Shown: positions 2,000 through 35,198, counted from the first letter of the stretch. The stretch is 64,000 bases of DNA from Takakia lepidozioides (GCA_030704615.1 CM060732.1:24056001-24120000); one strand, 5' to 3'. Translations and numbers: made by a program. The notes: generated by a model not told the origin, from the letters alone.

Positions 2000-3253
2000 T
2001 CAACGCTTCTTCCGCTTTTGAGGTCGCCCTTCGAAAGTTGCAACCGCCTCGGATGCGTTTCCCATTTCTGAGGCACGCACCCGAGATGCCTCCACATGAT
2101 GATAGCCCTTCCATTTCACGAGATACTCTGTTTCTTGATTCTTGAAGCTCCTCGACTTAAGCACTGCCTCCACCTTGTACTCAGGTTCATTTTCATGATC
2201 CAACAGCAAAGGTGGCGGACGCAACACTTGAGGCCGATTCGGACGTGCTTCATCTTTGAAGTAAGGCGTCAAAAGGGAGACGTGGAATACCGGATGCACC
2301 TTGCTATTTGCCGGCAGCTCCAATTCATACACATCCTCATTCATAACCTTCCGGATGCTAAAGGGTCCCGCATACGGGGGTTACGAACTTCGGACTCACT
2401 TCCGGAGGTAGTCGAATTTTTTTTGATGTTCAACCAGACCTCCGTGCCAGCCTCAAACTTAACCTCCCTCTGCTTCCGATTCGCCTGCCGTTCATACCGT
2501 TTCCTAGCTTTGGCAATGTTGTATTTCGCGAGCTTCAACAAACACTCCGGTTCTTTCAGCACTGCCACTGCTGCCGGTTCCTCAACGTCTTGGGCGGCCC
2601 AACTTGTCGGCACCAGAGGTGCTTTTCCATAGACCAATACGAAAGGGGAAACTCATGTTGCAGAATGTTTTGTATTATTATAACAGAACTCTGCCGCATC
2701 CAAGTGCTCTACCCAGTCCGATTGGTCTGCCGACACGTAATTCCGCAAGATCTGCTTCACCACAGAATTCACCCTTTCCGTTTGGCCGTCCGTCGTAGGT
2801 CGGAAGGCGGTGTTCATTTTGAGCCTCGTCCCCATTTTCTTCCAAAGTACCCTCCAAAATTTACTAGTAAATTTTGGATCGCGGTCCGAGACAATATCCT
2901 TCGGGAGTCCATGATGCTTGAAGACGTGGGCGAAGTAAAGTCGCCCCGTCTCCTGCGCCGTTGCCGTCTCCTTGGTGGGGATGAAATGACCCATTTTATT
3001 GAACCTATCCACCACCACCATGATTGCGTCGAATCCTTTTGACAGCGGCATAGCAGTCATGAAGTCCATTGAGACACTTTCCCAAGACCCCTCTGGAATC
3101 GGCAAGGGTTGTAACAGCCCCGCTTGTTTTTTGTACTCGCTCCGGTTTTGTTGGCATGTGGTGCATGTCTTGACATACTCCTCGGCCTCCTCTCTCAGTT
3201 TGGATCAGAAATACTCTTTCTTCAAGAGTGCCGCGGTGCGCTTGGCTCCGCCG
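2000..3253 (-). pseudogene. pol: Element A pol, 3' part (integrase core, degenerate GPY/F region, chromodomain)
   Basis: WESVSMDF, IVSDRDPKF, TDGQTERVN integrase; EYKVEAVL...EYLVKWKGY chromodomain; frameshifts. Continues from 21370 once element B is removed. Confidence 0.92.
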
Positions 3254-3978
3254 TGTCGCGCACCTCACTTCGGTTAGCTCCCCCCTCAAGTCATAGTTAC
3301 TCGCTTGATGCGCGCGCCTAACTCCCAACCTGGCCGCCACGCCAACTTGGAGCTCCGGCTGCTCACCGGGGCATAACGGTCCCCCTTTGATCTCCCAAAG
3401 AACCCTCCAACGATTTGGAACCCGCGGAATTCCCTTTGGTAGTTGGCAGTCTGGAACAGCTCCCACTCTTTGGTCGCTTTCCGGCTCGCTCGCTTACCCA
3501 CTAGTTTTTGGTCACCAACGGGCTTGCACCGTTCTCGGGGTTACTACTCCCTATATATACTTCTGAAGCTATCTGCGGGGGTTTCACAAACAACCATGCC
3601 ATTTTATGGCGAACCACCACGAACACCCTCGACTCCCGGTGATGAGTCGCGGTGAGTCTTGGCCCACTCACCACGGCCCTTATGGACTGTGATGAGTCCC
3701 AAGACTCCCCACGACTCCCACCACGAGGTCTCCGCCCCAGGGTGAGTCCTATGCCACCCCCACTAAGTCCCGCTAAGCTACCACCACCCCTTGTGGAGCC
3801 ACCCCCACCACAACCCGGTGTGTGGGGCTCCACCTAGTGAGCGCCTCCGCCTCCTTGAGTGCCTTGGGCACTCAAGGGTGCTTCAGCCCCCCATACCTAT
3901 CGTTGCCACTGCCCCCACCACAGGGGCAGCCCCTCTTGTGTCCCGACCCCCTGCCCCTCAAGGCAAAGGGCCGCGACA
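3254..3978 (-). repeat. 3' LTR of element B
   Basis: TG...CA ends; matches 8638-9265 plus 21274-21369. Confidence 0.95.
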
Positions 3979-8582: not shown

Positions 8583-8637
8583 GATGAGGCCAATCCCAAG
8601 GATGATCACGTACTGAACTCTAAGCTCTGATACCAAG

Positions 8638-9265
8638 TGTCGCGCACCTCACTTCGGTTAGCTCCCCCCTCAAGTCATAGTTACTCGCTTGATGTGCGCG
8701 CCTAACTCCCAACCTGGCCGCCGCGCCAACTTGGAGCTCCGGCTGCTCACCGGGGCATAACGGTCCCCCTTTGATCTCCCAAAGAACCCTCCAACGATTT
8801 GGAACCCGCGGAATTCCCTTTGGTAGTTGGCAGTCTGGAACAGCTCCCACTCTTTGGTCGCTTTCCGGCTCGCTCGCTTACCCACTAGTTTTTGGTCACC
8901 AACGGGCTTGCACCGTTCTCGGGGTTACTACTCCCTATATATACTTCTAAAGCTATCCGCGGGGGTTTCACAAACAACCATGCCATTTTATGGCGAACCA
9001 CCACGAACACCCTCGACTCCCGGTGATGAGTCGCGGTGAGTCTTGGCCCACTCACCACGGCCCCTATGGACCGTGATGAGTCCCAAGACTCCCCACGACT
9101 CCCACCACGAGGTCTCCGCCCCAGGGTGAGTCCTATGCCACCCCCACTAAGTCCCGCTAAGCTACCACCACCCCTTGTGGAGCCACCCCCACCACAACCC
9201 GGTGTGTGGGGCTCCACCTAGTGAGTGCCTCCGCCTCCTTGAGTGCCTTGGGCACTCAAGGGTGC
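8638..9265 (-). repeat. 5' LTR of element B, main segment (remainder at 21274-21369)
   Basis: The LTR sequence breaks at ...CAAGGGTGC and resumes as GTGCTTCAGCC at 21270. Confidence 0.93.
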
Positions 9266-9350
9266 TGTCGTGCGCATACATATCGCTACACAACTACATC
9301 GCTGTCCAAACCACCCCACACATATATGCACAATAAAGTAGTTTACCACA
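9266..9350 (-). repeat. Terminal repeat A of element C (85 bp, displaced part of the 5' LTR)
   Basis: Appears identical to 9702-9786 by eye. Confidence 0.92.
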
Positions 9351-9351
9351 A

Positions 9352-9786
9352 TGATAGAAATCCAATGAACACACTGTGACACAAAACATGAAAACCAAAC
9401 CATCACTCTTAGAAAATAGTAGTCAAGCCAGGGGCACCCCAAGCTATGGGGACTCCACCCCACAACAACGTGTACCCCTACATAAGCACACTCAAATCTA
9501 AACACATGCAGGAGCTCGGTCGCGCAGGCTCAACTCGAGAAAGATGAGCCGCGCGACTGCCGCTTTCGTGAAGATAAGACGGACCAGGTGTCAAACTAAA
9601 CTTGACACCTGATTTAACACTTGACCTAAATCCAAGTGTTAAATACAAATAACTAGTTTTATTCTAGCTGTTTTCACACTGTGCTTATTTAACTTGACAG
9701 CTGTCGTGCGCATACATATCGCTACACAACTACATCGCTGTCCAAACCACCCCACACATATATGCACAATAAAGTAGTTTACCACA
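9352..9786 (-). repeat. Intact 435-bp 3' LTR of element C (B + GC + A), lying internal to the element end
   Basis: Minus strand TGTGGTAAA...TTTCTATCA, preceded by AGGGGGGCG-AT (PPT plus 2 nt); contains the palindrome GACAGCTGTC at 9696-9705. Confidence 0.85.
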
Positions 9787-9788
9787 AT

Positions 9789-9797
9789 CGCCCCCCT
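9789..9797 (-). promoter_or_regulatory. Polypurine tract of element C
   Basis: AGGGGGGCG followed by AT and then TG of the 435-bp LTR. Confidence 0.65.
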
Positions 9798-10045
9798 AGC
9801 TGGTGGATAGGTCCCTCTACCTCCAGATAGCTACAAGACGTAATAGCCATAGCCGTACTAAGTCCTGTATCACTGTCCCTATCGCACTCAAACTCTATAG
9901 ACCAAGAGGCCGGGTACAAGAGTAGCCCCATCGTTAGTCGCCGTCTTGCAATCTGTGAACTTGAGCCAGGACTTCGTGTATTCAAGGTCTCCTGTAGCTG
10001 GGCCTTGCGTTGCTTGTTAGCCTCCCATGGTTGTATCCACTCCCA

Positions 10046-10264
10046 CTATCCAATGCATTGTGGACATAACCAATCCCCATCTGGAACCATCTCAAGAGGT
10101 GGAGTCAAGCACCCCATATGCCAACCTCTAGAGCATCGATCACACACCAGCATGGTGGCTGCCCCTTTAGCAGACCCACACAACATGCACCTCAAACCTG
10201 CAGATACCACTGCCAGGTTTGGGTCAATCCTGCCATCGACATTCGGAAGTGACATGGCGCACAA
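10046..10264 (-). CDS. PHD finger at the C-terminus of element C integrase (frameshifted from INT)
   Basis: CMLC...MLVCDRCSRGWHMGCLTPPLEMVPDGDWLCPQC is a C4HC3 PHD. Confidence 0.9.
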   Translation of the reverse strand: MCAMSLPNVDGRIDPNLAVVSAGLRCMLCGSAKGAATMLVCDRCSRGWHMGCLTPPLEMVPDGDWLCPQCIG

Positions 10265-11500
10265 TTACGCACATGGTCCTTCCAAGTTATGCCATCCCGA
10301 CCCTCCAAGACCAAGACGCCTGAGGGCAAGACCTCTCGTACCCTCAAAATAACACGTCCTGCAGTCACATCCAGGGTCGTAGGAGCAGTCTGCTGCAGAT
10401 AGACATAGTCACCAGGGTTGAATCTCCGAACCCCAGGACGATAGCCCCCACCACGTATGGTAGCATACCTCAACGTATCACGGTGTTGTGCAATGGCAAG
10501 GTTCTCGAAAGCCATGGGCATGACTCTCTTGAACAACTCTGCACGATGCTCACATGCACGTGCCCATACGTCCGGATCGTCAAGGTTAAGAACTGTAGCA
10601 GCTTCTCTGCGAATGGATGTAGGCAAATCCGGCTCTCGGCCAAAGAGAAGAAAGTATGGTGAGAAGGAGGCAAGTGATGCTTGCTTGCTGAACCTGTAGC
10701 CATGGCTAACCAGGGTAACTGAAGGTCCCAATCTCCTAGGTGTCCCTTCTGCAAGCCATACTTGCGCAAACCCCTCTTACTGTCTGAACAACTCTCTCTG
10801 CCAAGCCATCGGCCTCAGGATGATCCCGAGAAGTGGTGCGGTGGTCTATCAAGGCCTTGTCACACAAAGCCTGAAACTCCCCCAAGAACTCTCTCCCTTG
10901 GTCCGTGAGTACCTCAGCTGGAGCACCGAATCGGCTAAGCACACAATCCAAGAATGCATACGCAGCTCCCTCACTAGCCTTATCAGGCAATGGAACCAAT
11001 TCAATCCACTTGGAGAAGTGCTCCACCATCACCAACACGTACTTGTTGTGGCGCATGGTCAGTGGCAACGGCCCTGCGAAGTCAAGACTCCACCTGTAGC
11101 CCAATCCCATGATCGGAAGAGGGTGCAATTGTGGAGTAGGGGCGTTGAATGAAGCACGCACCCTGTCACACACCATGCACCTAGCCACAAATTGTTGCAC
11201 CTCTGTGTGCATACCACGCCACCAATACTGCCCCTGCAGTAGGCTATGGGTGCGTCGCACCCCAAAATGCCCCAACTCCTCGTGGGCATGCCGCACTAAC
11301 TGTGCCCGCTGTGTTGGGTGAGGCACAATCCTCACTCGACCATCCTCCCACACTCGGAGCAGGTGTGTCCCCTCCCACTTGAACCTCTTGGCTCGTTGTA
11401 GGATCCGATCCCTCTCCTTGGCAGTCACAGTGGCTGCGTGTCTCCAGTGCGAAGATAGTCCAACACAGCTGAATCCTCATGTATATCTTTGGCGCCACCT
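10265..11500 (-). pseudogene. pol: Element C DDE integrase
   Basis: HAHEELGH...CMVC zinc finger; WSLDFAGP, VLTDQGREF, ADGLAERVV catalytic D-D-E; frameshifts near 11430 and 10740. Confidence 0.92.
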
Positions 11501-11690
11501 TGCTCATTGCTGGCCTCAGGGTCCTCAGACACTTGATCCACAGTCATCCCTGTTGCAGGTCCAACCTGGCCTTCCGCTGCCAAGATACACAGAAATGCAG
11601 ATGCATGCCATCCGGGCACCATCTCCTCGTCCGTCTCACCATGCCACCGAGCTCCAGTGTCATCCTGCTGGCTCGTGCATGGATTGCGAC

Positions 11691-13120
11691 TCAACCCATC
11701 TGCATTGCGATTGACCAAACCGGTCGATGCACCACCTGAAAGTCATACTCTTGAAGGATGAGTGCCCACCGTGCAAGCTTCCCCGTAAGCTTGTCTGACT
11801 CCATCAACCACTTGAGTGGTTGATGATCCGTGACAAGGGTGAAGAGATTGCCGTATAAATAGCACCTGAAGTGTGCCACGGCCCACACTGCAGCTAAGCA
11901 TTCTCCCTCATATGAGCTATACTTAGACTCTGCAGCATTGTTCGAGCGGCTAGCATAAGCCACTACGAACTCTCTTCCCTCATCATCCACCTGTGTGAGC
12001 ACCGCTCCAAGCCCCAGCATGCTCCAATCTGTATGCAGCTGAAAAGGACGCCCCCTGATAGGTCGTCTCAAGATGGGCGCCGAGGTCAACCTCGCCTTGA
12101 GCTCTTGAAAAGCTTGTTCTTGCTCATCTTCCCACTGCCACTCCTGGTCCACCTTGGTCAGCTGGTTAGAGCCTTTGCAATGGCACTAAATCCCTTAACA
12201 AACCGTCTGTAATAGTTTGCTAACCCCATGAAAGCTCGAACTCGGCTCACATCCGTGGGGGGGAATGGAATGGACTCTACCTTAGTCTGCTGTACCCCCA
12301 ATCCTCCAGGATATATCATGTGACCCAGATACTCAATCTGGTTGTGGAAAAACTTGCACTTGCCCGGATGTAACTTCAATCCGTGCGTCCTCAAGCGCTC
12401 AAATACCCCCTGAAGGTGTCTCTCATGCTCCTCCACCGTAGCACTAAAGATGATGATGTCATCTATGTAGCACCGAGCAAACTCCACCCCTGCTAGAATC
12501 CTGTCCATGACTCTTTGAAACTCAGCGGGAGCGTTTTTAAGCCCAAATGGTAAGAACCGCCACTAGTATAGGCAATCCTTCCCGTGCTCGTTGATCCCCC
12601 AGAATGCCGTTTTTTGCTTATCCGCCTCCTTGATCGGCAACTGGTGATATCCGGATCGTAAATCCAACGTGCTAAAGACCTTGGAATGCCCAATGGCATC
12701 AAAGATCTCCTCTGGTGTTGGCATGGCATACCTATCGGACTTGGTCTGACGATTTACAGGCCGGTAATCACCGCACATACGTCTCTCCGTCCAATTGCCA
12801 TAGACATCCTTCTTAGCTGGCATCACTGTGGCTGAAGCATACTCTCCACCAGAGAGCTCCACCAAACCTGCCTCCCAGAGATCTTGAGTCCTCATCTGAA
12901 TCAAAGACCTCTCCATGTCACTGTATCTATAGGGTCTCCGAAAGATTGGCGTGTCAGTGGCCAACTCAATACGGATCTCTTGACCCTTCAGTGCTCCCAA
13001 GTCCTTCAAACTGAAGGCACAGCAATTCCTATAAGCCCTCAGGAACCGCCGTATACGTCGTCTCTCTCCTCCGGTGACAATGGGTCCAATGTCAGGCTCC
13101 CAATTGTCCTCCGTAACTGC
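11691..13120 (-). pseudogene. pol: Element C reverse transcriptase and RNase H
   Basis: RMCGDYRPVN, LDLRSGYHQ, LPFGLKNAP, CYIDDII; RNase H LHTDWS...YEGECLA...TDHQPL. In-frame TAG at 12563 and frameshifts. Confidence 0.92.
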
Positions 13121-13209
13121 AACCTTAAGTCCAGTGGGCTTAGAGGTAGAGGACGCGTCCCGTGGTTGCTATGCTGCAACCTCTTGAGCAGTACCCCCTT
13201 CCTGCTCAG

Positions 13210-14526
13210 TCAATGACAAGGCCTCATCCTGCCCCATCGTCTCATCATTGAGAACCTCCTCATCCCGAGAAGAATCCCCAACCCATCCATCACAGCTGCC
13301 TTCGCTGCCAACTCCCTCTGAACCTCGAGCACCTCCCACATGTGCCATGGATGTCTACACCTCGTGGTCCTCACCGGCTCGCCCCCACTCGCTGCCTGTA
13401 CCGTCTCGGTAGGCAGAGAGACCGTCAAGGGAAGTGCACTCCGCACTCTACGTTGCTCAGCCATAGCCAAGCTGACAATCCAGGTCAAGCAATTGAGATC
13501 CATTGCTTGCCCCAACACCTGACGACGTGATGCCTCAGAAAGAGAAGGCACCGCCGTGGTCCCAGTGTGAAAAAACCCCATAGCCCGCTCTCGCTCGTCG
13601 GCATTAGGCTCCACTAACTGCTGCAACTGAGCATCCCACAAGAGGCCAGGTCCACCATCCCGAAAAGCATGGGATCCTGGGAAGCTGAGCAGTGTAGGTA
13701 ATGCTGCTCGTGGTTGACCCACCCTGTTGACCACTGCCAAAGGCGAACGGTCATCGTGTCTCACACGTTGAGACTGCCTTCCTGTGTCCAAAATGCCATC
13801 CACGGTGAGGTGTGCTGGCCGCTGCACCCCATCAAATGCACGCTTGAGCAGTGCGGGTGGCATCAAGTTAGTCCACCATAGTCGTGGACGATGAGCCCGT
13901 GACCCCACTGCAGCTGCATCCAGCAACACTGCTGACCCAAGCCACGACCGGACTTGATGCACACTGGCCATCACCCTGGCCCGAGAATCACCCATCAGTG
14001 GTACATTCTCCAAGATGTATGCTGGAGATACAGCTTGATGAAGCTGCAAGCAGCGCAAAATCCGCACCATCTCCCAAAACAGACCCGTCCTCGAGTCTCG
14101 CAATCCATTGCCATGCCCGGCTGATGAATGCCCTTGGCAGGGCCAACCTGCCACTATCAGATCAATGGAGCCAACCTGCTCCAAATCTTGCGCCCCCAAC
14201 AAGGAAATGTCTGCTGGCAAGGCTTGTTGGTATCCACGAACTGCAGACACAGGCAACAAGTCAGGGTACTGCTGTACCAACTGAGCCACATGGCGCAGTG
14301 AGACACGTCGTGCAGTCTCATCCCTCTCCACATACAGGTAACGCCTTACCCGCACACCTGCCTGTAGCACAGCAGCCAATCCGGTGCTGATCCCGCCAAA
14401 CAAGTCCAGAAGGCAAATGCCTTCATCCGGCCGCTGCCACATAAGAGGTGTGGTGTCCAATGACGACAACTGAGGTGGCCCTGGTGCGATCACCGCACTC
14501 TCCTCCTCTCTTGACGGTACAAAAGC
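13210..14526 (-). CDS. DNMT3-like C5-cytosine DNA methyltransferase domain within the element C polyprotein
   Basis: Motif I LDLFGGISTG, IV IDLIVAGWPCQ, VI YILENV, VIII LLDAAAVGSRAHRPRLWWTNL, IX ERERAMGF, X RRQVLGQAMD. In frame with gag-PR after a single TAA. Confidence 0.92.
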   Translation of the reverse strand, partial: AFVPSREEESAVIAPGPPQLSSLDTTPLMWQRPDEGICLLDLFGGISTGLAAVLQAGVRVRRYLYVERDETARRVSLRHVAQLVQQYPDLLPVSAVRGYQQALPADISLLGAQDLEQVGSIDLIVAGWPCQGHSSAGHGNGLRDSRTGLFWEMVRILRCLQLHQAVSPAYILENVPLMGDSRARVMASVHQVRSWLGSAVLLDAAAVGSRAHRPRLWWTNLMPPALLKRAFDGVQRPAHLTVDGILDTGRQSQRVRHDDRSPLAVVNRVGQPRAALPTLLSFPGSHAFRDGGPGLLWDAQLQQLVEPNADERERAMGFFHTGTTAVPSLSEASRRQVLGQAMDLNCLTWIVSLAMAEQRRVRSALPLTVSLPTETVQAASGGEPVRTTRCRHPWHMWEVLEVQRELAAKAAVMDGLGILLGMRRFSMMRRWGRMRPCH

Positions 14527-17373
14527 TTATTCCCAAGCTTGTTGCACCCGTCCATCAGCAGCTTGCTGCAAATCCTTGCTCGTACCCCACAACGGAGTGT
14601 GAGCAACCATGGCAGGCAACTCCGCCGTACCATGCATGTCATCCTGCTCTGCTGGAGGTGGCACATCCTCTGCATGGGCATTGCCTTCCAGCAACTCTCC
14701 AGGCCAACTAACGGCAGCTGTGAAGGCGGCTAGTGTTGGCATCTTGCCCCGCTGGGCAGCTGCAATACCCCCAATGAATGTCACAGGGAGCTGTGCACGG
14801 CAACCATCCCCCGACTGCCATCCAGGCCTGTAGGATGCTGACTCCTCCCAGAAATCCAGGGTGAAGCCCATGGGGTATAACACTGCCCCACCAACGAGGA
14901 CATCGTAAGAGACCGCGTCTGTCACAATGGCCTTGGCTCGCATCACTGAGCCATCTACAGGATGATCCAGCTGCAGTCTAATAGCCAACTGATGTCGTGT
15001 CATGCCGCGAGCCTGCTCTGATCCTCCCAGAGATGTCTGTATCTGGAAAGGACAAGGCTCCATATCCGCCTCCATGAGGCCCAAACCTGCAATAGCAGCT
15101 CTGCCCAACATCAGTGGCTGAGCTCCTGAGTCCAACAAGACTCGTAGTGGCCGGTACTTCTTGCCTGCCGGTCCACTCAAAGTGAAAATGCCTCCCTGGT
15201 TGTCTAACAAGACAACTCCAGGTGTCACCATGGCGCGCTCAATGGCTGGCCTAGCTGGCAGCTCCGTCAACCTGGCAGCTGCAACTTGCCATGGCGCAGC
15301 CGTGGCAGTCTTGACCCTCAAATCCGAGGATCCCTCTGCCACTACACCTTCCACTAACTCCGCAGAAGATGAAGTGACCTCCCCACTCTCACAGAGTGTT
15401 GCTGCTAGTCTGAACACTGCAGCTGGTCTCACCCCCGGCGTCGCAATCATTGTTGCCAAGAACAGTGGGGCCTGACACACAGAGGTGGCTGCCCCCAATA
15501 ACACACCGGCCGCACTAGCCTTGGCAGCAGGAGTCAATGCTGCACGTGTAGCTCTCCCCAATGGCATAGTAACCTCCGCCTCAGTAACAGTCGGGCGAGA
15601 ACTAGGTGCCATGGATGGCGTCGACATAGTCTCCGCCAATGTGAATGACTGAGGAAGCCTTGCCTGACGGCTTGTCTCCCCACGCTGTGGATCCAATTCC
15701 ACCTCTGCACCTCGTGGCTCAGGAACTCGTGCTGCTCCTCGAGTCACGGCTGCAGCAGACTCCACCTGCTCTAGTGGTAGTGCTGCTCCGCACATAAATC
15801 CCATGCCTCCCATATCTCCTCCCTCAGGAGCAGGAGGTGGACCATCCCGCCTGGGAGCCGGTACCGCCTGAGCTATAGCCATGGCAGCGAGCCTCTGCTC
15901 TAGCTGCTGAAGCCGGTTGGCCATGCCTTGATCAACGCCCTGACCACCGCGTCCTTGGCCATGTTGAGCTTGCCCTTGGCCTGCACCTCGTGCCCGACCA
16001 CCTCGTCCTCTCTGGGCTGGTCCACCTCGCCCCCGGCCACCATTGTTCCCTTGGAACTGGCCTGGGCGCAACTCAGGATGCAAGTCATAACACTGGGCAT
16101 CTCCATGCCCATACTTGCCACAATGCACACACTGCAACTGTGCAGGCTGTGCTTGTGCTGGCCTTCTGCCACTCTCTGGGCAATCTCTCTTGACATGGGG
16201 TCCTCCACATGTCCAACATATCACCCCTGGTTGCTGTTGGCCTGCAAAAGATGCCACGGGCCTCTGCACTTGAGGTCCCCTGTAAGCTCCATGGAACTTG
16301 GGCTGGGCAACCTTGCCCCCCTGACCACGCTGTTGGGCAGTCCCTTGTGTCTGTGGGCTGACAGTTGTGCCCCGTACAGGCATGTCCTTGCCAAATCCAA
16401 TTGTAACAACTCGCTCCTCCACCATGTTGAGCTCAATCCGCTCAGCCAGTAGAAACACATCTGTTAATGTGGGTTGGGCTGCTTGTAACAGGGTTGCATC
16501 TCGCACCCTTCTCTTGAGCTCCTTGTCCAGAATTCCATACCAAAACTGGATTGCCTGAGCTTCAGTAACCCCTTGGGTCACACTTATCAAGCGCCTCATA
16601 CGAGTGTACGCCTCTCGCAGGCTCTCACTGGGTTTGCGCTGGAAGTCTTGCAAACTTCGCAGCTTCTCTGTCCGTACACCTTGGTAGTTCCTCCGCAAAT
16701 CCTGGAAGAACTCCACCACCGGGTTGAATCTAGGCACATGTGTTGTAGTCGTGGCAGGAGGAGTAGTAGCACCTTTTGAACTGGTACCACCTGCAGAAGT
16801 ACCAGCACTACTTGCTCCACTACTAGTGCTGGCAGTGGGAGCTATTGGTACTGATGTAGCTACTGGTCGCGTCGTGCCTCGAGTAATGGAGACGTAGTCA
16901 GGTGACCAATACATCCTCCACTCCTCAATCTCTGCTTCATGTCCTCGCCTGAACTCGTGGTAATCGTCCATAGGCGGGCCTTCCAAATGCTGGAACAGTC
17001 CCTTCCACGCCATGAATGGGGTGAATAGCTGTGGATTGCGCATCTGCTGCAAATCACACCAGCTGTCAAACTCCTGGATAAAGTCATCCAACTCAATTGT
17101 GCCCACAGCTCCAGAGTACCTACGAGGCCCCTTGGTAGCTCCATACATCTCCTCCATGTCGTCCCACAACAATGGCGAATGAAAGTGCACACTTGTTGAT
17201 GAAGCCTCCGAGTCTGTGTCTGACTCTACAGTAATTGAAGGTGGCGGTGAAGGTGGTCTGAACCGAATACCTCGTCTTGTGAACCCACTCTCACTGTTAC
17301 TGCCTGTAGCCGTACTCCCCTCAAAACCCTTGGGTAACTCCGTAATGACACTCATAATGTGCACCTCCTCCAC
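14527..17373 (-). CDS. gag: Element C gag-protease (two CCHC-type zinc knuckles, RGG-rich region, aspartic protease)
   Basis: 948-aa open frame; FQRKPSESLREAYTR capsid-like motif; CWTCGGPHVKRDC and CVHCGKYGHGDAQC; VLLDSGAQP...YDVLVG protease. Confidence 0.88.
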   Translation of the reverse strand: MEEVHIMSVITELPKGFEGSTATGSNSESGFTRRGIRFRPPSPPPSITVESDTDSEASSTSVHFHSPLLWDDMEEMYGATKGPRRYSGAVGTIELDDFIQEFDSWCDLQQMRNPQLFTPFMAWKGLFQHLEGPPMDDYHEFRRGHEAEIEEWRMYWSPDYVSITRGTTRPVATSVPIAPTASTSSGASSAGTSAGGTSSKGATTPPATTTTHVPRFNPVVEFFQDLRRNYQGVRTEKLRSLQDFQRKPSESLREAYTRMRRLISVTQGVTEAQAIQFWYGILDKELKRRVRDATLLQAAQPTLTDVFLLAERIELNMVEERVVTIGFGKDMPVRGTTVSPQTQGTAQQRGQGGKVAQPKFHGAYRGPQVQRPVASFAGQQQPGVICWTCGGPHVKRDCPESGRRPAQAQPAQLQCVHCGKYGHGDAQCYDLHPELRPGQFQGNNGGRGRGGPAQRGRGGRARGAGQGQAQHGQGRGGQGVDQGMANRLQQLEQRLAAMAIAQAVPAPRRDGPPPAPEGGDMGGMGFMCGAALPLEQVESAAAVTRGAARVPEPRGAEVELDPQRGETSRQARLPQSFTLAETMSTPSMAPSSRPTVTEAEVTMPLGRATRAALTPAAKASAAGVLLGAATSVCQAPLFLATMIATPGVRPAAVFRLAATLCESGEVTSSSAELVEGVVAEGSSDLRVKTATAAPWQVAAARLTELPARPAIERAMVTPGVVLLDNQGGIFTLSGPAGKKYRPLRVLLDSGAQPLMLGRAAIAGLGLMEADMEPCPFQIQTSLGGSEQARGMTRHQLAIRLQLDHPVDGSVMRAKAIVTDAVSYDVLVGGAVLYPMGFTLDFWEESASYRPGWQSGDGCRAQLPVTFIGGIAAAQRGKMPTLAAFTAAVSWPGELLEGNAHAEDVPPPAEQDDMHGTAELPAMVAHTPLWGTSKDLQQAADGRVQQAWE

Positions 17374-17892
17374 GTGACACTATAAGGCTCTAGTACTAAT
17401 CTAATAGTGACACGGGTGGGCACCTGTTGCAGTTTAAGGGTCGTATCACAATGGCTCAGGGCACCTGCACCTGCATCCACCGCAAGAACTCCTATGGTTG
17501 GCTGGTCATCAACCCAGCCTCACCATAGAAGAAACACTGGTGGTCTTGCTGGTCATCACTCCAGCCTCACCACCGACAGCATACTCTAGGATTGACCGGT
17601 GATCAAATCCGGCCTAATCCCTATGAAAGCAAGCGCCCACACAAAACCAACATGGCGCACAGTCAAGCATGCAGGTGTTGGGGGGGATCCAAACACAAGA
17701 AATCAAAACATCAACACCCCCACACCAAAATCCAGCTGCAATGCTGATCCTGCAGAATATCCCAGCCCAAAACCCCGGACTGACTGGCCTCCACCAAGAG
17801 AGGCTTTGGCAACTACGAGTACAAGATAATGAAAATAGTACAGAGATGGAGGGGAAGAATAGAAGTTCGCCCAAGCAAGATCTAATCCTGAT

Positions 17893-18642
17893 CTATGCTA
17901 TCAACTTCCAGACTTCTCTCAAAGTGCCTCGCTCTGCGTGATGGTAAGGTGTAGGAGGTATATCTATGTCCAGAAACCTGCCACTAACCTTGTCCCAAGC
18001 TACAGTAGCTCGCTCTAACCAACCCTCCTCCTCTTTCTGCCAGGTAGAGACAAAGCAATACTCCCCTATCTCCCGCTCACTGAACACTAAAGAAAACAAA
18101 GGTAGGGTCTGATAGTCTCTCAACTCGAAAGCTTTGAGACGGTTGCGGGTGTCTTCATTGCGAATGACTGCATCGCCTTCAAACAGAACAAACTTGTCCT
18201 CGCTAATGAACCCCCGCTCGTGGTTGCCTTGTGCAGAGCGTGTCCGACTGCAACACTGTCTAATTGCACAAACTTGTGTAGCTCCTGCTCCTCTGCTCCA
18301 GTACACCACGGCCTTGTGACTGAACACCTTGGTCCCCGGGGCTGTCTTTGGCTGTGTTCCAAGCCTAGCTTTCACCCACTTTGGTATTTCACCTACAGCT
18401 GCAGAACTGCTGGCTCCAACAGAGTTCTGACTGTCCAAGGCGATATTGAGGCCCTCAATGCCAACTACAGCAGTCTGTTGTCTACTGCTAATGCCTGACT
18501 CCCAGTATGCAATCAACTCGTCCAACTGTTCTCCACTCAAATCAGTCTGAGTTCCTTGGGAAACATAAATCTTGTCCCCTTTGGTGCACAGGCTAAGAGA
18601 AGAGACCTGCCCTTCAACGACGTCCTCATTTCCCCCAGCCAT
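17893..18642 (-). CDS. Unknown 249-aa ORF upstream of gag in element C
   Basis: ATG-initiated open frame co-oriented with gag; no recognisable motif. Confidence 0.5.
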   Translation of the reverse strand: MAGGNEDVVEGQVSSLSLCTKGDKIYVSQGTQTDLSGEQLDELIAYWESGISSRQQTAVVGIEGLNIALDSQNSVGASSSAAVGEIPKWVKARLGTQPKTAPGTKVFSHKAVVYWSRGAGATQVCAIRQCCSRTRSAQGNHERGFISEDKFVLFEGDAVIRNEDTRNRLKAFELRDYQTLPLFSLVFSEREIGEYCFVSTWQKEEEGWLERATVAWDKVSGRFLDIDIPPTPYHHAERGTLREVWKLIA

Positions 18643-19469
18643 ACAAGGAGTACATCCACAGATTTGTCTCTAATATAGACCAGCACAGGTTCTAGAGACA
18701 GGATTGTGGATCTTTCATGGCACACTCACACTCTAAAAATTCCATAGATTTTTAGCAGAGTCCCAAAAACAGAAACCAGGTCTAGATAGGTAGATTTCCC
18801 CTTTCTGCAGCTATCCCCTCAAAAACTGAGTCAAACGGAGCTCATTTGACAAAGATATGACCAACCAGGCTCTTTAAACATTTAAATTAGATCAAAAAGG
18901 CTTTGTTTTTTTTTTTTTTTTTTTAACACCAAAACGCTTTTGCCATTACAACTTGTTCCCAGGTTATCTACGAGTTCCCGAGGTCGTTCCCCTCCAGGAT
19001 TCTCCAGGCACCAAGAGCTCGTTAATTCCAACACTCGACCTCAGTTGGGTGGGGTATCACGATTTGCTTTTCTCTGCGCGTGGGCCTGCCTCCTCGAGAC
19101 CTAGAGACTACAAACCAGGAATTGGGGCGATTTCAAGAGCAGATGCACTGCGCAGCACCTTCATGGCTTATGGACAGGCGGCCTGCTGTGATGTGGCCGT
19201 CTTGGCATGGAATCCAAAGCCAAGACCAGCTTGAAGTTCCATCAACTTGGTCTAATTCGCATCTCTCATGTTTTCCTGCAACGGGCATTGACGCCCACAA
19301 TTTCCAGGGCTTGCACTGAAGCATTTCTAAGCTGTTCTTAGGCCACTAACACACCCTGTGTAGCTGCAGAAATTGTTCCCACGGGACCCTATAGATTCAC
19401 CTGTAAGGCTGCTCAACGCCTGAGCTTAGAGTATGGTTGGATCACTTGCTCATTAAAGGCCCACAGAAT

Positions 19470-20057
19470 ATCTACAAAAGGACCCCAGCCTGACCACCAC
19501 CTGCTTGTGCCAGCTTGTTCAAAGATTTGCCCAGGTACTTTCCTTGTCTCTCAGCAACACTCTTTGTTTGCGGTAGGGCTTCCATTAGTAACTGGATCAA
19601 CTGCCAAGCTTCCACCAGGGCACTTCTTCACAGGTAAGGAGTGGACAAAGGAAGAAGATCCAACACCCATTGATCAAACCAGCAGCCCGTATGGCACCTC
19701 CGTCCCATCCGTAAGCACTAATTTGTCTGGCAGAACATCCTTGACTACATCTTGCATCAGCTTTACCCCAGTCTGAAAACAGTTATGCATTTAAGATCCT
19801 CCAGCTTATCCCTCCAAACCCTTGATCAGGTGTCTGGTCGCGTACTCCCGGAGTCGAACATCGAAAGATGAAAAAAAATCTCCTTTGCCTCAATAAGTGT
19901 GACATGGATAAAATCTTTCACATGGCCGAACTAGCCGTACTAGCCGTAGACGTCTCTCCTGATGAGTCACTGAGCTCACCACTAAGTTCCACCCCTGTAG
20001 GACCACCACCTACAACAACACAGTGTAGCAGTCTTGCCTTCTCATCTGCTGATATCC
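19470..20057 (-). pseudogene. NDA: Captured fragment of a type II (alternative) NADH dehydrogenase NDA gene
   Basis: [73 protein letters not shown]. Confidence 0.85.
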
Positions 20058-20152
20058 CTGCAATCCATTTTGAAAAAAAAAAAAAACTGTCCAGGTACTG
20101 CATGCTGGATTGCCTTGTCGGTTGTTGGCTAGTCCCACCACTGCTGTATTTA

Positions 20153-20206
20153 GCCTTCTATCACATGAATCAAGTCGTCCACAGTGGTGTCTTCCCTAAA
20201 CAGCAC
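20153..20206 (-). pseudogene. DRG: Captured fragment of a DRG-family GTPase gene
   Basis: [18 protein letters not shown] versus the conserved DRG motif VLFREDATVDDLIDVIEG. Confidence 0.65.
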
Positions 20207-20709
20207 TTGCCACTACTGTCCTTGTCAATGGTGATTCAGTTAGAGTCACCCCTGAATCACGATAACTTGCAGCCCCAAGTGGCAACGTTCAGATGTGGAC
20301 CCACTTTTGAGACCCACCAAATGTCATTTATGCCCAGTCCTCTGCCAAGTCACAGATACACACAACTAGTTGGATCAGAGCCTTCTTCCGAGCAAGGCAT
20401 TCTTTTCCGCGCTGCAGTGTCATCTGCTGCCAAAAATTTGGAAGACAAGCTTCCACCCACTGTTCCACATCATCATCATCGTTCGTTGTGACTTCAAGCT
20501 TCTGATTCTGCAAAGCCTGGACAGTCAAGCGGTTGTTCATTTGAAAGAGGATCAGTGGTATGCAATGAAGCCTTCAGACATGACACACAAGACCAGAAGA
20601 GCTCCTCTATAAGCTTACTGGTGAAACGATCATCCAGCTTCAAGGATCATGCATAGGTGCCAACTAGCATTTGCTGCTGCATTTTTAAGTATCTCCTTGT
20701 GTACCCCAA

Positions 20710-20829
20710 AGCCTCTAGTGACTTGGTAGCTTCAGCGACTGCAATAACAATGGCGGCTCTGGCATCGTCATCCTCCAGGCGTTTCAGGGCACGCTGAATC
20801 TTGTGGTCACATTCAATGATATGCTTCTC
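20710..20829 (-). pseudogene. LUC7: Captured fragment of a LUC7-like splicing-factor gene
   Basis: IIECDHKIQRALKRLEDDDARAAIVIAVAE resembles plant LUC7-like IVECDRKI.RALKRLE.EDAKAAIAISVSE. Confidence 0.7.
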
Positions 20830-20905
20830 AAACTAATCACTACTTATACGCAGGTAATCTTGCAAGTGCTAACCCTCAACTCCTACCTTGCACTCACAGG
20901 TAAGA

Positions 20906-20921
20906 GCTCATCTTTCTCGAG
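20906..20921 (-). promoter_or_regulatory. Self-priming primer-binding site of element C
   Basis: CTCGAGAAAGATGAGC directly after the LTR-terminal CA is the exact complement of GCTCATCTTTCTCGAG inside the LTR (21119 to 21104). There is no TGG tRNA PBS. Confidence 0.8.
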
Positions 20922-21269
20922 TGATAGAAATCCAACGAACACACTGTGACACAAAACATGAAAACCAAACCATCACTCTTAGAAAATAGTAGTCAAGCCA
21001 GGGGCACCCCAAGCTATGGGGACTCCACCCCACAACAACCTGTACCCCTACATAAGCACACTCAAATCTAAACACATGCAGGAGCTCGGTCGCGCAGGCT
21101 CAACTCGAGAAAGATGAGCCGCGCGACTGCCGCTCTCGTGAAGATAAGACGGACCAGGTGTCAAACTAAACTTGACACCTGATTTAACACTTGACCTAAA
21201 TCCAAGTGTTAAATACAAATAACTAGTTCTATTCTAGCTGTTTTCACACTGTGCTTATTTAACTTGACA
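20922..21269 (-). repeat. Terminal repeat B of element C (348 bp, remaining part of the 5' LTR)
   Basis: Matches 9352-9699 with 4 substitutions counted by eye. Confidence 0.92.
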
Positions 21270-21369
21270 GTGCTTCAGCCCCCCATACCTATCGTTGCCA
21301 TTGCCCCCACCACAGGGGCAACCCCTATTGTGTCCCGACCCCCTGCCCTCAAGGCAAAGGGCCGCGACA

Positions 21370-24739: not shown

Positions 24740-24741
24740 AG

Positions 24742-25418
24742 TGTCGCGCACCTCACTTCGGTAAGCTCCCCTTCAAGTCATAGTTACTCGCTTGATGCGC
24801 ACGCCTAACTCCCAAACTGGCCGCCGGGCCAACTCGGAGCTTCAGTTGCTCACCGGGGCATAACGGTCCCCCTTTACTCCTCCACTAGACCCTCTCCCAG
24901 TTTGGGCCTAGTGGAAATTCCCTTTGGTCGATGGCAGTCTGGAATAGCTCCCCACACCTTGGTCGCTTTCCGGCTCGCACGCTTACTCACTAGTTTTTGG
25001 ACACCAACGGGCTTGCACTGTTCTCGGGGTTACTACTCCCTATATATACTTCTGTGACTGTCCGCGGGGGTTTCACAAACAACACCACCATTTTATGGCG
25101 ATCCACCACGAAAACCCTCGATTCCCGATGAGTCGCGGTGAGTCTTGGCCCACCCACCACGGTCCCCTTGGACCGTGATGAGTCCCAAGACTCCCCACGA
25201 CTCCCACCACAAGGTCTCCGCCCCCATGGTGAGTCCTATGCCACCCCCACCGCAACCCAGTGTGCAGGGCTCCACCTACTGAGTGCCTCCGCCTCCTCGA
25301 GTGCCTTGGGCACTCGAGGTTGCTTCAGCCCCCCATACCTATTGCTGCCACCGCCCCCACCACAAGGGCAGCCCCTCTGCGACCCGACCCCCTGCCCTCA
25401 AGGCAAAGGGCCGCGACA
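24742..25418 (-). repeat. 5' LTR of element A
   Basis: Direct repeat of 392-1094, followed on the minus strand by the PBS. Confidence 0.95.
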
Positions 25419-30647: not shown

Positions 30648-31091
<444 letters not shown>

Positions 31092-32457: not shown

Positions 32458-33644
32458 TTTCTAGTTTCTACCTGCCATTCTTACTTTTAGACAAAGAAAA
32501 GCTGCTAAGAAATATGGTCACAATTGTCAGACAATGATTTATTTCCCCAAAATAAGTCTCTGACATTCCTGACTAGTCTCAAGACTTCTAATTTGGCCGG
32601 CTAACGAGCTGACAGTTATCGGACTTCATTTAACTGTTATGTACCGTTGCAACATGAACTTACTTAATGTACCCCCAGACTCGGCTCCAAATCAAACCAT
32701 CAGCAAATCCAACCCCATTCTCTACCGCTGGATGTCCTCACCGATCCCCGCTCCACTTCCGTCGATATCCTAAAATCTAGCGGTAAAATTGAAGCGATAG
32801 AGGCTGCGACGCGGGCTCGAACCGCGCTGTCGTTGAATAATTGCAAGAGACGAGCGGCAGCGAGTGACGACAGAAAGAAGCGTGGCCGCACGCGACCAAC
32901 ATTCTATTGGGCTATTTTTGGGGACTTTATTGCCCGTTGTGGGGTCCCGTCTCCTCAAATCACGAGGCCATGAATGAATGCATCCAACGAGTAGTCGTTA
33001 AATGAATGAATGTATCTTCCATTTTCCCGAACATATTTTTCATAAATAGTTAGATATAGTGTGTGGTTGTAGGAGTGAGTTAGTTAGGCGGTGATTAGTT
33101 AGTGAGTCGTGTTAAGTGAGGATTAGTGAGCGAGGGAGGCAGACGAGCAGGCGGGCCTCGTGGGGAGCTTCCATGGCTGCAGCGTCCACTCACCCTTCTG
33201 CGAGTTCTGCGAGAGAGTGTCGGTCGCAGGGATTGTTGTGAGGGTGCGGGAGGAATGCACGTCGTTCTCGAATTGGGGATTTTGTGTTTCCCTCGTGTAC
33301 AATTCGCTTCATCGTCGACCGGAGCCCTTTCCTCTTCCCATTGGGTATCTGCGGATCTTTCTTCTTCCTGTTGCTCGTCGGATGTTTTCCTTCTTTCTTT
33401 CTTTCGGTAGAGTAGGCATTGGCTGTGATGGAATAGGGCGGGCGGTGGAGCAGCGTTTCCCCGGAGGGTAAGTTGGATTGGAGGTTCGCTCATGCAGCAG
33501 TTAGGGTGCAAAGAAACATATGCGAGGTCAGAATTGTGGCTGAGCTGCAGACGCGAAGAAGAATTTCGAATTTTTGTTGCTGTAAGGGATAGACGGCCGG
33601 AAACGTCAAAAGGGTGATCTTTGATGGAGCACTAGTGTCCAGCA

Positions 33645-35198
33645 ATGGCAGAGTGCCAGTGGCACCCAAATAGGCGCGCGGTAGGTGTGTGCGCGCTGTG
33701 CTTAAGGGAGTCTCTACAAAGACTGGCAGCATTCCAGGCAGAAGAGAAAAGCTCGCCCGATCGGTATGGAGACTACTCTGCTTCCTGGAAAGATTCCAAA
33801 GTTCCAGGCGCTGGGAAAAGTACTCGCACCATACTTATGGAGCGCCGAGGTGTGGGCAAGCACGAGGCTGTTGCATGTCAACGGAATGATGCGCTGCCTT
33901 TGGATAGGGAGCCATCATTCTTCTCTCTGGACGGGATAGAATTGATGCAGGGCTCGGAGGAAACAGTGGACAGACAAGAAGAGGCAAGCACGTCCGGTGG
34001 GAGTGGTGAAGCGCAGAATTGTGATGGTGAGACGCGGACTGGGCTCGCTAAGCCCTCCCATGTTGATTCTGAACATAGAAATGAAGTTCGTTCCTCTAGT
34101 TCATCCGGTAGCAAGCGAAGCACTTGGAGCGTAGGAATGTTTCGGATGGGGAGTTTGCGGAGCACATGGGGTATGCTGTGGAAGTCAGGGAAGAGGGCGG
34201 ATGAAACAGCTGCTTCCCAGCTGAAACCGATTGAACGTGGAAATGAGAGTAATGGAAATCCTGCAGCCTCCGAAGCTGAACAACAGCCCACCCCCGGCCG
34301 ACATTCCATGGCTTCTTTGATGGATATGGAATCCAGGGATTCGAAGCGATATTCCACTAGCAGCAGGGGAAGCCCTTGGAGCGGGACATCCTTTTCTTTC
34401 TCAAATGCTAACAACAAGTCAATCAATGAGGACGATTTTAGCTCCAACTGGCGGTCAAGCAGAAGCATTTGGGAGGCTAAAGTAAGCGCGAATGCACCAA
34501 GAAAGGGCGGCTTGGAAGGAGCTGCACATCCTCCAGAGAATGGAGGAACTCCACATTTCCCCTTTCACCTGGATAGTGCGGCGGTTCCAAATGTAGACAA
34601 TGCAAATCATAATTGTTGCTATGAGGATCAACAGAATGCTCGCGGTCTGCAGACTCTTTCAGCTCTCATGGCCCAGGAGCTGAAAGAGGTTAGGCAGGTG
34701 TCCAAGTCTAGCAGCAAGGGGAAGCTTCGGAGGCTTTTTTCTCTCTCTAGCACCACAAGGAAAATTCCTCGCAAGGAGGTGAGAAGCGAGGCGCCAAGCA
34801 AGCCTGACAAGGGTACGTGTGTTTCTGGAGGTCATGTAGTAGAGGACCCTTTGAAGCCTTTTCAGACAGGACAGTCAATGTCGGCTCTTCCTCGTACAAA
34901 CTCAAAAAAATCAAAGGAACGACCCTCTCGCAGTAATAGCATGAGAAGTCCGTGGTCTGGGACATTTTCTCGTTCCAGGACCAAGCCAAGCCCTGTGACC
35001 TTCTCCCTGAAGGCAGAGAACAGAGAGGAGATTGTTATGTCTGGAGATGCGGGCTTTCCAGATGATAACCTTCCCCGGCTATCAACGTCCAGCCCGTTCG
35101 TGGGATACTTCGTGGATTCTAGGCATCTCTCTCGCTCCAGCAGCAATGACAGCTCCTGCTTCGCCACTCCGCACTGGACTTACAGGCAGAGGCCATAG
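33645..35198 (+). CDS. DUF740 (OCTOPUS-like) family protein, intronless
   Basis: N-terminal CQWHP....GVCALCLRESLQRL motif followed by a long Ser-rich disordered region; 517-aa ORF. Confidence 0.8.
   Translation: MAECQWHPNRRAVGVCALCLRESLQRLAAFQAEEKSSPDRYGDYSASWKDSKVPGAGKSTRTILMERRGVGKHEAVACQRNDALPLDREPSFFSLDGIELMQGSEETVDRQEEASTSGGSGEAQNCDGETRTGLAKPSHVDSEHRNEVRSSSSSGSKRSTWSVGMFRMGSLRSTWGMLWKSGKRADETAASQLKPIERGNESNGNPAASEAEQQPTPGRHSMASLMDMESRDSKRYSTSSRGSPWSGTSFSFSNANNKSINEDDFSSNWRSSRSIWEAKVSANAPRKGGLEGAAHPPENGGTPHFPFHLDSAAVPNVDNANHNCCYEDQQNARGLQTLSALMAQELKEVRQVSKSSSKGKLRRLFSLSSTTRKIPRKEVRSEAPSKPDKGTCVSGGHVVEDPLKPFQTGQSMSALPRTNSKKSKERPSRSNSMRSPWSGTFSRSRTKPSPVTFSLKAENREEIVMSGDAGFPDDNLPRLSTSSPFVGYFVDSRHLSRSSSNDSSCFATPHWTYRQRP

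Follow-up and report, generated by a model that had tools for sequence, protein, structure and literature searches.

Why would a retrotransposon keep an enzyme of the kind that silences it? The question dates from 2018 and has lacked an answer in part because the hosts known so far are experimentally awkward; it is raised again by a 64,000-nucleotide stretch of Takakia lepidozioides DNA (GCA_030704615.1 CM060732.1:24056001-24120000; hereafter the window). The window holds a Ty3/Gypsy element with a cytosine methyltransferase (DNMT) domain between its protease (PR) and its reverse transcriptase (RT). We find that this element almost certainly encodes a complete, non-permuted DNMT3-type C5 methyltransferase, as judged from sequence and predicted fold. 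We also argue that the conserved enzyme is probably made in bulk, as the last part of a Gag-protease-DNMT product, and would methylate the element's own new DNA. The element and its enzyme are placed as follows.

9266 to 21269, minus strand: whole Ty3/Gypsy element, 12,004 bp, termini TGTCA...CGACA, delimited by an empty site and by contigs joining across the insertion
13486 to 14421, minus strand: DNMT3-type C5 cytosine methyltransferase domain, from PF00145, canonical motif order I-X, and profile and fold matches
14409 to 14386, minus strand: motif I, LDLFGGIS
14151 to 14131, minus strand: motif IV, AGWPCQG
14016 to 14002, minus strand: motif VI, ILENV
13893 to 13864, minus strand: motif VIII, HRPRLWWTNL
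13611 to 13573, minus strand: motif IX
13527 to 13495, minus strand: motif X

An earlier note on this DNA had reported an uninterrupted frame at 13210..14526, embedded between protease and RT, with motifs I, IV, VI, VIII, IX and X in non-permuted order and with wording close to DNMT3 and unlike DRM; all of this held up. The stop-to-stop frame lies on the minus strand (438 aa) and matches PF00145 at E 2.6e-13 in a Pfam scan, a check that the note had proposed; every motif was located in canonical order, the DNMT3A match that the note quoted was recovered in a phmmer alignment, and Pfam matches flank the domain on both sides, the protease match being weak (about 15153-14932, E 0.004-0.01). The limits of the frame, taken as gene borders, do not stand: both are breaks of this copy, since the stop at 14527-14529 is private to it and the frame is broken near 13283. 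In run X2, whose 48 contigs cover the site of that stop, almost the entire depth has a different sequence there, as does the entire depth of X5, X6 and X9, and contigs of three runs carry an indel at the frame break. The methyltransferase proper spans about 14421-13486.

The enzyme shows motifs I, IV (PC), VI (ENV), VIII (RxR), IX and X in a C5 methyltransferase fold, and it falls within the DNMT3 family because DNMT3A/B are closest in both profile and fold and the motif order is non-permuted. A single-sequence search of the PDB ranked DNMT3A first (E 2.9e-9), as did a profile search (E 1.7e-29), followed there by DNMT3B/C, DRM (3e-16) and HhaI (1.3e-10). The predicted structure, built from a 71-row alignment, has a predicted local distance difference test (pLDDT) score of 96.5 and is collinear with DNMT3A/B (Z 29, root-mean-square deviation 2.5 over 273 residues; best bacterial enzyme Z 25.2). 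We rejected a DRM identity, as the alignments and motif positions do not show the circularly permuted order. Catalytic fold and motif order are alike in the element enzyme, the plant host enzyme PpDNMT3b and animal DNMT3A/B, but structural identity to the animal enzymes is about 22-25% and the element enzyme is about 40 residues longer. Plant host DNMT3s bear a C-terminal DUF3444 (PMC6453930), which the element enzyme lacks: the Pfam scan of the frame returned PF00145 only, with no DUF3444 (PF11926), PWWP or ADD. PF11926 was absent also from the domain lists of the collected protein matches, and an Atlas lookup gave no information past PF00145.

The missing DUF3444 bears on a first objection, that the domain is a recent, neutral capture of a host DNMT3 gene. 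We found nothing in favor of such a capture and regard it as extremely improbable: no named host DNMT3 stood among the matches listed, the same domain occurs in liverwort, moss, charophyte and chlorophyte elements, and selection between families, described below, speaks against it. The nearest relatives, with up to 74% identity, are proteins annotated as hypothetical in Marchantia polymorpha, Calypogeia fissa and Sphagnum species; in M. polymorpha uninterrupted Gag-PR-DNMT open reading frames (ORFs) of 1278-1281 aa are found (Mp4g09160, Mp5g06330, Mp5g06860, MpVg00370, MpVg00540). The kinship with a Klebsormidium element that had been suspected is real, KFL_009030040 showing 45% identity over 261 aa and the same domain order, PR-DNMT-RT-RNase H (RH)-integrase (IN); a Scenedesmus pol also bears a DNMT domain. 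The domain is thus present in other copies, as relatives and contigs both attest. The whole DNMT is covered by contigs of four runs (contig depth not being equivalent to copy number), and a 5,009-nt contig from a second organism spans PHD to DNMT. Of the differences that contigs show within or near the DNMT, 33 were classed (from 40 of 142 difference rows), and 19 of these are synonymous.

The catalytic Cys is retained in 44 of 45 loci and in 270 of the 279 proteins covering the site, and the motif VI Glu in 278 of 288; for the catalytic Cys, for ENV and for the two arginines of motif VIII, retention among covering proteins is 92-97%. We computed dN/dS on 27 pairs, comprising eight measurable between-family pairs, seven that were saturated and 12 of decayed sister copies. 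The eight gave DNMT values of 0.08-0.21 (below 0.2 in seven), and the seven synonymous-saturated pairs gave pN of 0.18-0.34. Neutral evolution, which the earlier note had named as a possible refutation, is not what these values describe; judged by them, the DNMT domain is under purifying selection between families.

How would such an enzyme be made? On the minus strand the order of parts is repeat A, a 3.5-kb leader with an extra ORF, Gag, protease, DNMT, RT, RNase H, DDE integrase, PHD finger, polypurine tract, and repeats B-A-B. The coding parts around the DNMT are these.

14530 to 17355, minus strand: Gag and aspartic protease, first part of ORF1, with DSG at about 15132
14527 to 14529, minus strand: stop between protease and DNMT, private to this copy; the frame of relatives is uninterrupted here
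13163 to 13171, minus strand: conserved stop, TAG CAA CCA, in the RT frame, 37 codons before the RT match
11691 to 13168, minus strand: reverse transcriptase and RNase H, from Pfam, broken in this copy
10246 to 11476, minus strand: DDE integrase, H2C2 zinc finger and rve core, broken in this copy
10055 to 10189, minus strand: PHD finger ending pol, PF00628 E 2.6e-12

The enzyme had been supposed to be packaged with Pol. Packaging may well occur, but the DNMT is by default no part of Pol: it ends ORF1 (Gag-PR-DNMT), and a conserved stop separates it from RT-RH-IN-PHD. Because it ends ORF1 before this stop, the DNMT would be made at the level of Gag, and RT-RH-IN-PHD would be made through readthrough. 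In what follows, loci carry L numbers and proteins P numbers. Thirty-one of the 34 loci in which DNMT precedes RT have one stop, 31-38 codons before RT and in its frame, and the next hexamer is at most one mismatch from CAR-YYA. The hexamer is exact in eight of the 34 (the window, L003, L036, L037, L020, L021, L027 and L046), and 23 more have one mismatch, including CAA-CCC or CAA-CCT in the moss-like family and TAG-CCA in L025; the background among 40,286 stop triplets of these loci is 2.9% for at most one mismatch and 0.17% for the exact form. L033 and L034 are counted as stop-bearing, with a stop that is not the farthest one. L031 is frame-broken, and in L050 and L051 the stop is absent and motif IV is altered. 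The stop is conserved across families 50-70% apart, and the frame is open on both sides of it. Whole-DNMT proteins of the PR-DNMT kind give a similar picture, 50 of the 59 collected ending after the DNMT, 70-190 residues beyond motif X; the nine that continue are six NCBI gene models and three proteins from a separate continuous clade. In tobacco mosaic virus (TMV), CAR-YYA by itself directs readthrough (PMC2194720). RNA structure 3' of the stop was considered and rejected as a common signal: relative to mononucleotide shuffles z is -0.1 in the window, four loci range from -1.3 to -3.7, and they share no common fold.

L050 and L051 are divergent, with DNMT continuous with RT and a motif IV that reads GGTSCQ; L050 has a 133-bp terminal overlap and may be a circular or collapsed contig.

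A stop can be real and yet pol be made otherwise, as happens in Ogre-like elements or Tca2, whether from a separate RNA, by reinitiation or by splicing. Tca2 offers the precedent (PMC2194720), in five NCBI gene models the DNMT is linked to pol domains further downstream, presumably via predicted introns, and the moss-like family has a Met three codons after the stop. That Met is missing, however, in the window, L003 and L027, and CAR-YY is kept as nucleotides although the flanking amino acids vary (QP, QL, QS). With a single stop and the same frame open on either side, we give such alternative expression little chance, and we retain readthrough.

Gag fusion is the usual route into particles. 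Our best guess is that the enzyme methylates the element's own new DNA, at CG, because a Gag fusion would be packaged, because Symbiodinium enzymes methylate CG, and because the 2018 paper had proposed self-methylation of element DNA; that paper shows CG methylation in yeast by two Dnmt3 domains of SymbioDIRS (PMC5890265). We looked for a trace of this in base composition. Observed/expected CpG is 0.41-0.57 in the element's internal parts versus 0.84-0.90 in older DNMT-less neighbors; the depletion is seen also at fourfold sites (p 1e-6 and 3e-4), and C3 stands before G in 24 of 367 cases versus 23 of 124 in the surrounding Gypsy (p 3e-4). We rejected this depletion as proof of self-methylation, since it does not separate self- from host methylation: the host genes of the window are equally depleted (G3 in NCN boxes 0.14 versus 0.12), depletion in six moss-like elements does not exceed that of their flanks (0.50-0.59 versus 0.30-0.53), and it is slight in L025 and L045 (0.85, 0.90). 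These three comparisons weigh against bulk synthesis and self-methylation, as do several other observations. The Klebsormidium Gypsy enzyme yielded no methylation in yeast, a result its authors call inconclusive (PMC5890265). The largest family has CAA-CCC after the stop, not CAR-YYA, and eight of its copies read TAA. The 34 loci amount to about seven families and are non-independent, several pairs being the same insertion. As Tca2 shows, local context need not be what carries translation past an in-frame gag-pol stop (PMC2194720). Finally, the 12 sister-copy pairs gave DNMT dN/dS of 0.40-0.72 (RT 0.14-0.94 in the same pairs), which is as expected for decaying copies and in itself no evidence of selection.

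The absence of a self-specific CpG signature would also suit an active enzyme that acts on host DNA, either the insertion site or the chromatin read by the integrase PHD, and not on element DNA. There is a PHD finger at the end of pol, and bulk ORF1 synthesis would leave free enzyme in the cell. The stop, however, separates DNMT from integrase-PHD in most of the product, tethering being available only in the readthrough form, and fusion to Gag is the common path into particles; we consider a host target improbable. Less probable still is a non-catalytic or non-DNA role, such as binding or protecting the cDNA or circle, or RNA modification. The inactivity of the Klebsormidium enzyme in yeast (PMC5890265) would fit it, as would the weaker constraint on DNMT than on RT between L020 and L027 (dN/dS 0.11 and 0.04), but the catalytic residues are retained as described above, and the predicted fold is that of the whole DNMT3 catalytic domain. 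Self-methylation of new DNA is the function that we favor.

How that new DNA is made and inserted can be read in part from the ends of the element, whose features follow.

21270 to 21273, no strand: target site duplication GTGC, right copy, 4 bp
20922 to 21269, minus strand: repeat A, 5' copy, 348 bp, TG...CA
20906 to 20921, minus strand: primer-binding site adjoining A, with no TGG tRNA-type start
21104 to 21119, minus strand: 16-nt site in A that is complementary to the primer-binding site at every base and is the predicted self-primer; it recurs at 9534-9549
9789 to 9798, minus strand: polypurine tract directly before the first B
9702 to 9788, minus strand: repeat B, inner copy, 87 bp
9695 to 9706, no strand: B/A junction CGACA-GC-TGTCA, both termini joined via two bases
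9352 to 9699, minus strand: repeat A, 3' copy, four differences from the 5' copy
9266 to 9352, minus strand: repeat B, terminal copy, identical to the inner one
9262 to 9265, no strand: target site duplication GTGC, left copy, 4 bp

All five two-ended copies start with TGTCA, end with ACA and have 4-bp duplications. The window and L029 have the form A-coding-B-A-B, L017 and L044 the form A-coding-B, and L022 is rearranged; L012 and L015 likewise end at the first B. We rejected a 5-bp reading of the duplication in the window, as the four other copies show 4 bp. The polypurine motif recurs in L009, L012, L015, L017, L019, L020, L029 and L044, and the B/A junction CGACA-GC-TGTCA is kept in L009, L027 and L029, and L020 departs from it at a single base. 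With the polypurine tract placed ahead of B, the ordinary product of synthesis would be BA-coding-BA, and opening a one- or two-repeat circle of this product at B/A would give exactly A-coding-B and A-coding-B-A-B. We infer that the DDE integrase opens a circle at the B/A junction; the integrase of foamy virus cleaves palindromic circle junctions (PMC1180852). B-B recombination after insertion can also yield A-coding-B, and this weighs against our inference.

The split repeats could instead come from an unusual linear cDNA, formed with an extra strand transfer, in which case the A-coding-B forms would be later deletions. The B copies lie just 340-350 bp apart and could recombine. But the inner junction consists of the two termini with exactly two bases between them, a structure that families about 50% apart have in common, and a standard linear product would start with B, as the polypurine tract precedes B, which is seen in none of the five two-ended copies. 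We think the linear route unlikely, though deserving of some weight, and continue with the circle.

Priming appears to be internal. The primer-binding site pairs with the A-internal site at 16 of 16 nt in the window, and L028 and L029 have other sequence with the same 16-17 nt pairing, which is covariation between families. L009, L022 and L044 have only 10-11 nt of exact complementarity, and no self-priming complement was found in L013 and L017; the comparison leaves out L003, L020 and L027, whose 5' ends lie beyond their contigs. The RNA of the region folds at z -4.0. We predict self-priming like that of Tf1. The same has been predicted for plant Tcn1 elements, which like Tf1/Sushi lack a tRNA site; these chromoviruses carry a chromodomain (PMC6317226), whereas the element here has a PHD finger and split repeats. 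No chromodomain was found after the integrase, the PHD finger standing in its place.

We propose the following cycle. ORF1 is Gag-PR-DNMT and ends at the conserved in-frame stop. Occasional readthrough of UAG-CAR-YYA would add RT-RH-IN-PHD, with DNMT outnumbering RT roughly as Gag does, and the protease would free the DNMT within the particle. Reverse transcription would prime itself, if the covarying complementarity is a guide. The cDNA would circularize, and cleavage by the integrase would fall within the B/A junction, behind CA on each strand. A two-repeat circle opened in this way would be inserted as A-coding-B-A-B and a one-repeat circle as A-coding-B, in either case with 4-bp duplications. 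Either ahead of insertion or during it, the packaged DNMT would methylate the new DNA, CG being the most likely target, and the new copy would arrive resembling host chromatin. Taken loosely, the joint chain of readthrough, packaging and self-methylation seems to us rather likely. It is a much more tentative suggestion, and on balance a doubtful one, that a green-plant-wide lineage primes itself and has its DDE integrase cut a CA-GC-TG circle junction, and that in land plants a leaky stop loads its particles with DNMT3 and methylation precedes insertion.

The wider distribution was examined in a representative protein library, which yielded 265 clusters at E up to 1e-30. Among the best 150 of these, DNMT stands after RNase H or before integrase in 75, after protease or before RT in 13, and as RT-DNMT in one, with DNMT only in 61. 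Given these placements there are at least two architectures, and the kind extends past streptophytes. The second, with DNMT between RNase H and integrase, is seen in L045:3791-12478, P0043, P0146 and others, including the Scenedesmus pol. For the DNMT tree we used a quick method on 75 rows hand-picked from 324 proteins and 70 loci, consisting of element enzymes and six distant outgroup rows; neither it nor the RT tree contains a host DNMT3. The window falls in a 24-row clade (SH-aLRT 98) with liverwort and moss elements, Klebsormidium is in a separate group, and the RH-DNMT-IN forms are in a third. The RT tree (40 rows, 152 columns) recovers the same stop-bearing clade with SH-aLRT 93. L054-L070 were rejected as elements, being stand-alone methyltransferases (15 weak or divergent loci were inspected). 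P0065 (HEY9806811.1) is an ORF1 fragment labelled as a DNA cytosine methyltransferase of a cyanobacteria-related metagenome-assembled genome; it is probably eukaryotic DNA within a cyanobacterial bin, because its cluster includes a 1359-aa PR-DNMT protein.

In K. nitens a Gypsy-Dnmt3 element whose repeats are DIRS-like has been described (de Mendoza et al. 2018, PMC5890265), and Gypsy-Dnmt3 was later mentioned for "streptophytes" (bioRxiv 10.64898/2026.05.21.726589; PMC12344493). KnitGypsy-Dnmt3 resembles our element in having an intronless, non-permuted Dnmt3-like domain in a Gypsy, DIRS-like repeats and purifying selection (PMC5890265). Here too the domain is intronless and between PR and RT, the window and L029 read A-coding-B-A-B, and Ka/Ks is under 0.2 in the seven of eight measurable between-family pairs already mentioned. 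The two differ in that the KnitGypsy DNMT lies in the Pol ORF (PMC5890265), whereas here it ends the Gag-PR-DNMT ORF with a conserved stop before RT; the host here is a land plant, and the clade is separate in both DNMT and RT trees. The portions of the main text of PMC5890265 consulted make no mention of target duplications, priming or a PHD finger in KnitGypsy-Dnmt3. SymbioDIRS-Dnmt3 of Symbiodinium shares the Dnmt3 domain and A-coding-B-A-B repeats but has a tyrosine recombinase (PMC5890265), where our element has a DDE integrase and 4-bp duplications; we rejected the DIRS/PAT class, finding an rve and H2C2 integrase, a protease and 4-bp duplications instead. The Chlamydomonas elements Gypsy-7a_cRei and REM1 also combine Gypsy Gag-Pol with PHD and are long, with repeats that have sub-parts, but no DNMT is among the domains listed for Gypsy-7a in the part of PMC9940879 consulted. 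A single in-frame stop with CAR-YYA, or a hexamer one mismatch from it, directly after is shared with TMV-type readthrough and the in-frame stops of murine leukemia virus (MuLV), SIRE1 and Tca2 (PMC2194720); the stop here, however, follows protease and DNMT and precedes RT and does not stand at a gag/pol or pol/env border.

Our searches, which mostly did not reach Repbase, theses or subscription papers, found no literature that treats members from land plants, the stop, the priming or the junction, none on CARYYA or readthrough in retrotransposons, and, by title and abstract, none on DNMT3-bearing long terminal repeat (LTR) elements of Marchantia or other bryophytes. Nor did these searches turn up in print the leaky-context stop after DNMT, the covarying Tf1-like self-priming, or the split repeats with 4-bp duplications and CGACA-GC-TGTCA. 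The M. polymorpha ORFs bring the question into a model plant with methylation mutants, and the position of the stop suggests that the element needs much of the enzyme. Circle integration via a retrovirus-type integrase, a route disputed for retroviruses, is what the end structure points to. On the practical side, such elements would escape LTR finders built around a pair of full LTRs and a tRNA site, and where their ORF1 is taken for a host methyltransferase gene, the tally of such genes can come out too high.

The copy in the window is dead, given at least five frame changes in pol and a stop in the RT frame at 12563-12565. At seven places in 10248-13283 contigs of other runs carry one base more than the window, and some of these gaps may be errors of the window assembly, not mutations. 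The leader holds one further feature.

17896 to 18642, minus strand: extra upstream ORF, no Pfam family, one homologue (metagenome P0342, 40% identity)

No homologue of this ORF was seen in the fetched loci by tblastx. Contig coverage from the host's runs drops sharply in the part of the leader at about 18970-20900, compared with the remainder of the element; this part has short degraded frames, one with an 11-residue stretch reminiscent of an NAD(P)H dehydrogenase; it is possibly captured host sequence.

The element is inserted in an LTR of a DNMT-less chromodomain Gypsy that is itself nested in an older relative. The outer, older chromodomain Gypsy has LTRs at 391-1094 and 24741-25418 and a 5-bp duplication, the nest spanning 391-25418; the middle, younger relative, which holds the DNMT element, has LTRs at 3253-3978 and at 8637-9265 plus 21270-21369. 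Both have a primer site of the tRNA-Met type. The other LTR of the host element provides the empty site (3851-3906), from which the 4-bp duplication is read. Insertion was recent, as had been proposed, the DNMT element being the youngest of the three. The earlier note's four differences in 348 bp were counted correctly but belong to the A repeats and not to the B copies: the A copies differ at four of 348 sites and the 87-bp B copies at none, compared with seven of 630 for the LTRs of the surrounding element.

Elsewhere in the window, a PPR-E-E+-DYW gene at 54545-56011 (plus strand), a land-plant marker, bears out the assignment to a land-plant host. A mitochondrial cox1 fragment (30648-31091, minus strand, PF00115 E 9.9e-16) lies within nuclear-looking DNA. 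Two long ORFs, 33636-35198 (plus strand) and 36536-37807 (minus strand), match no Pfam family and begin with a cysteine-rich part that we take to recall OCTOPUS-like plant proteins.
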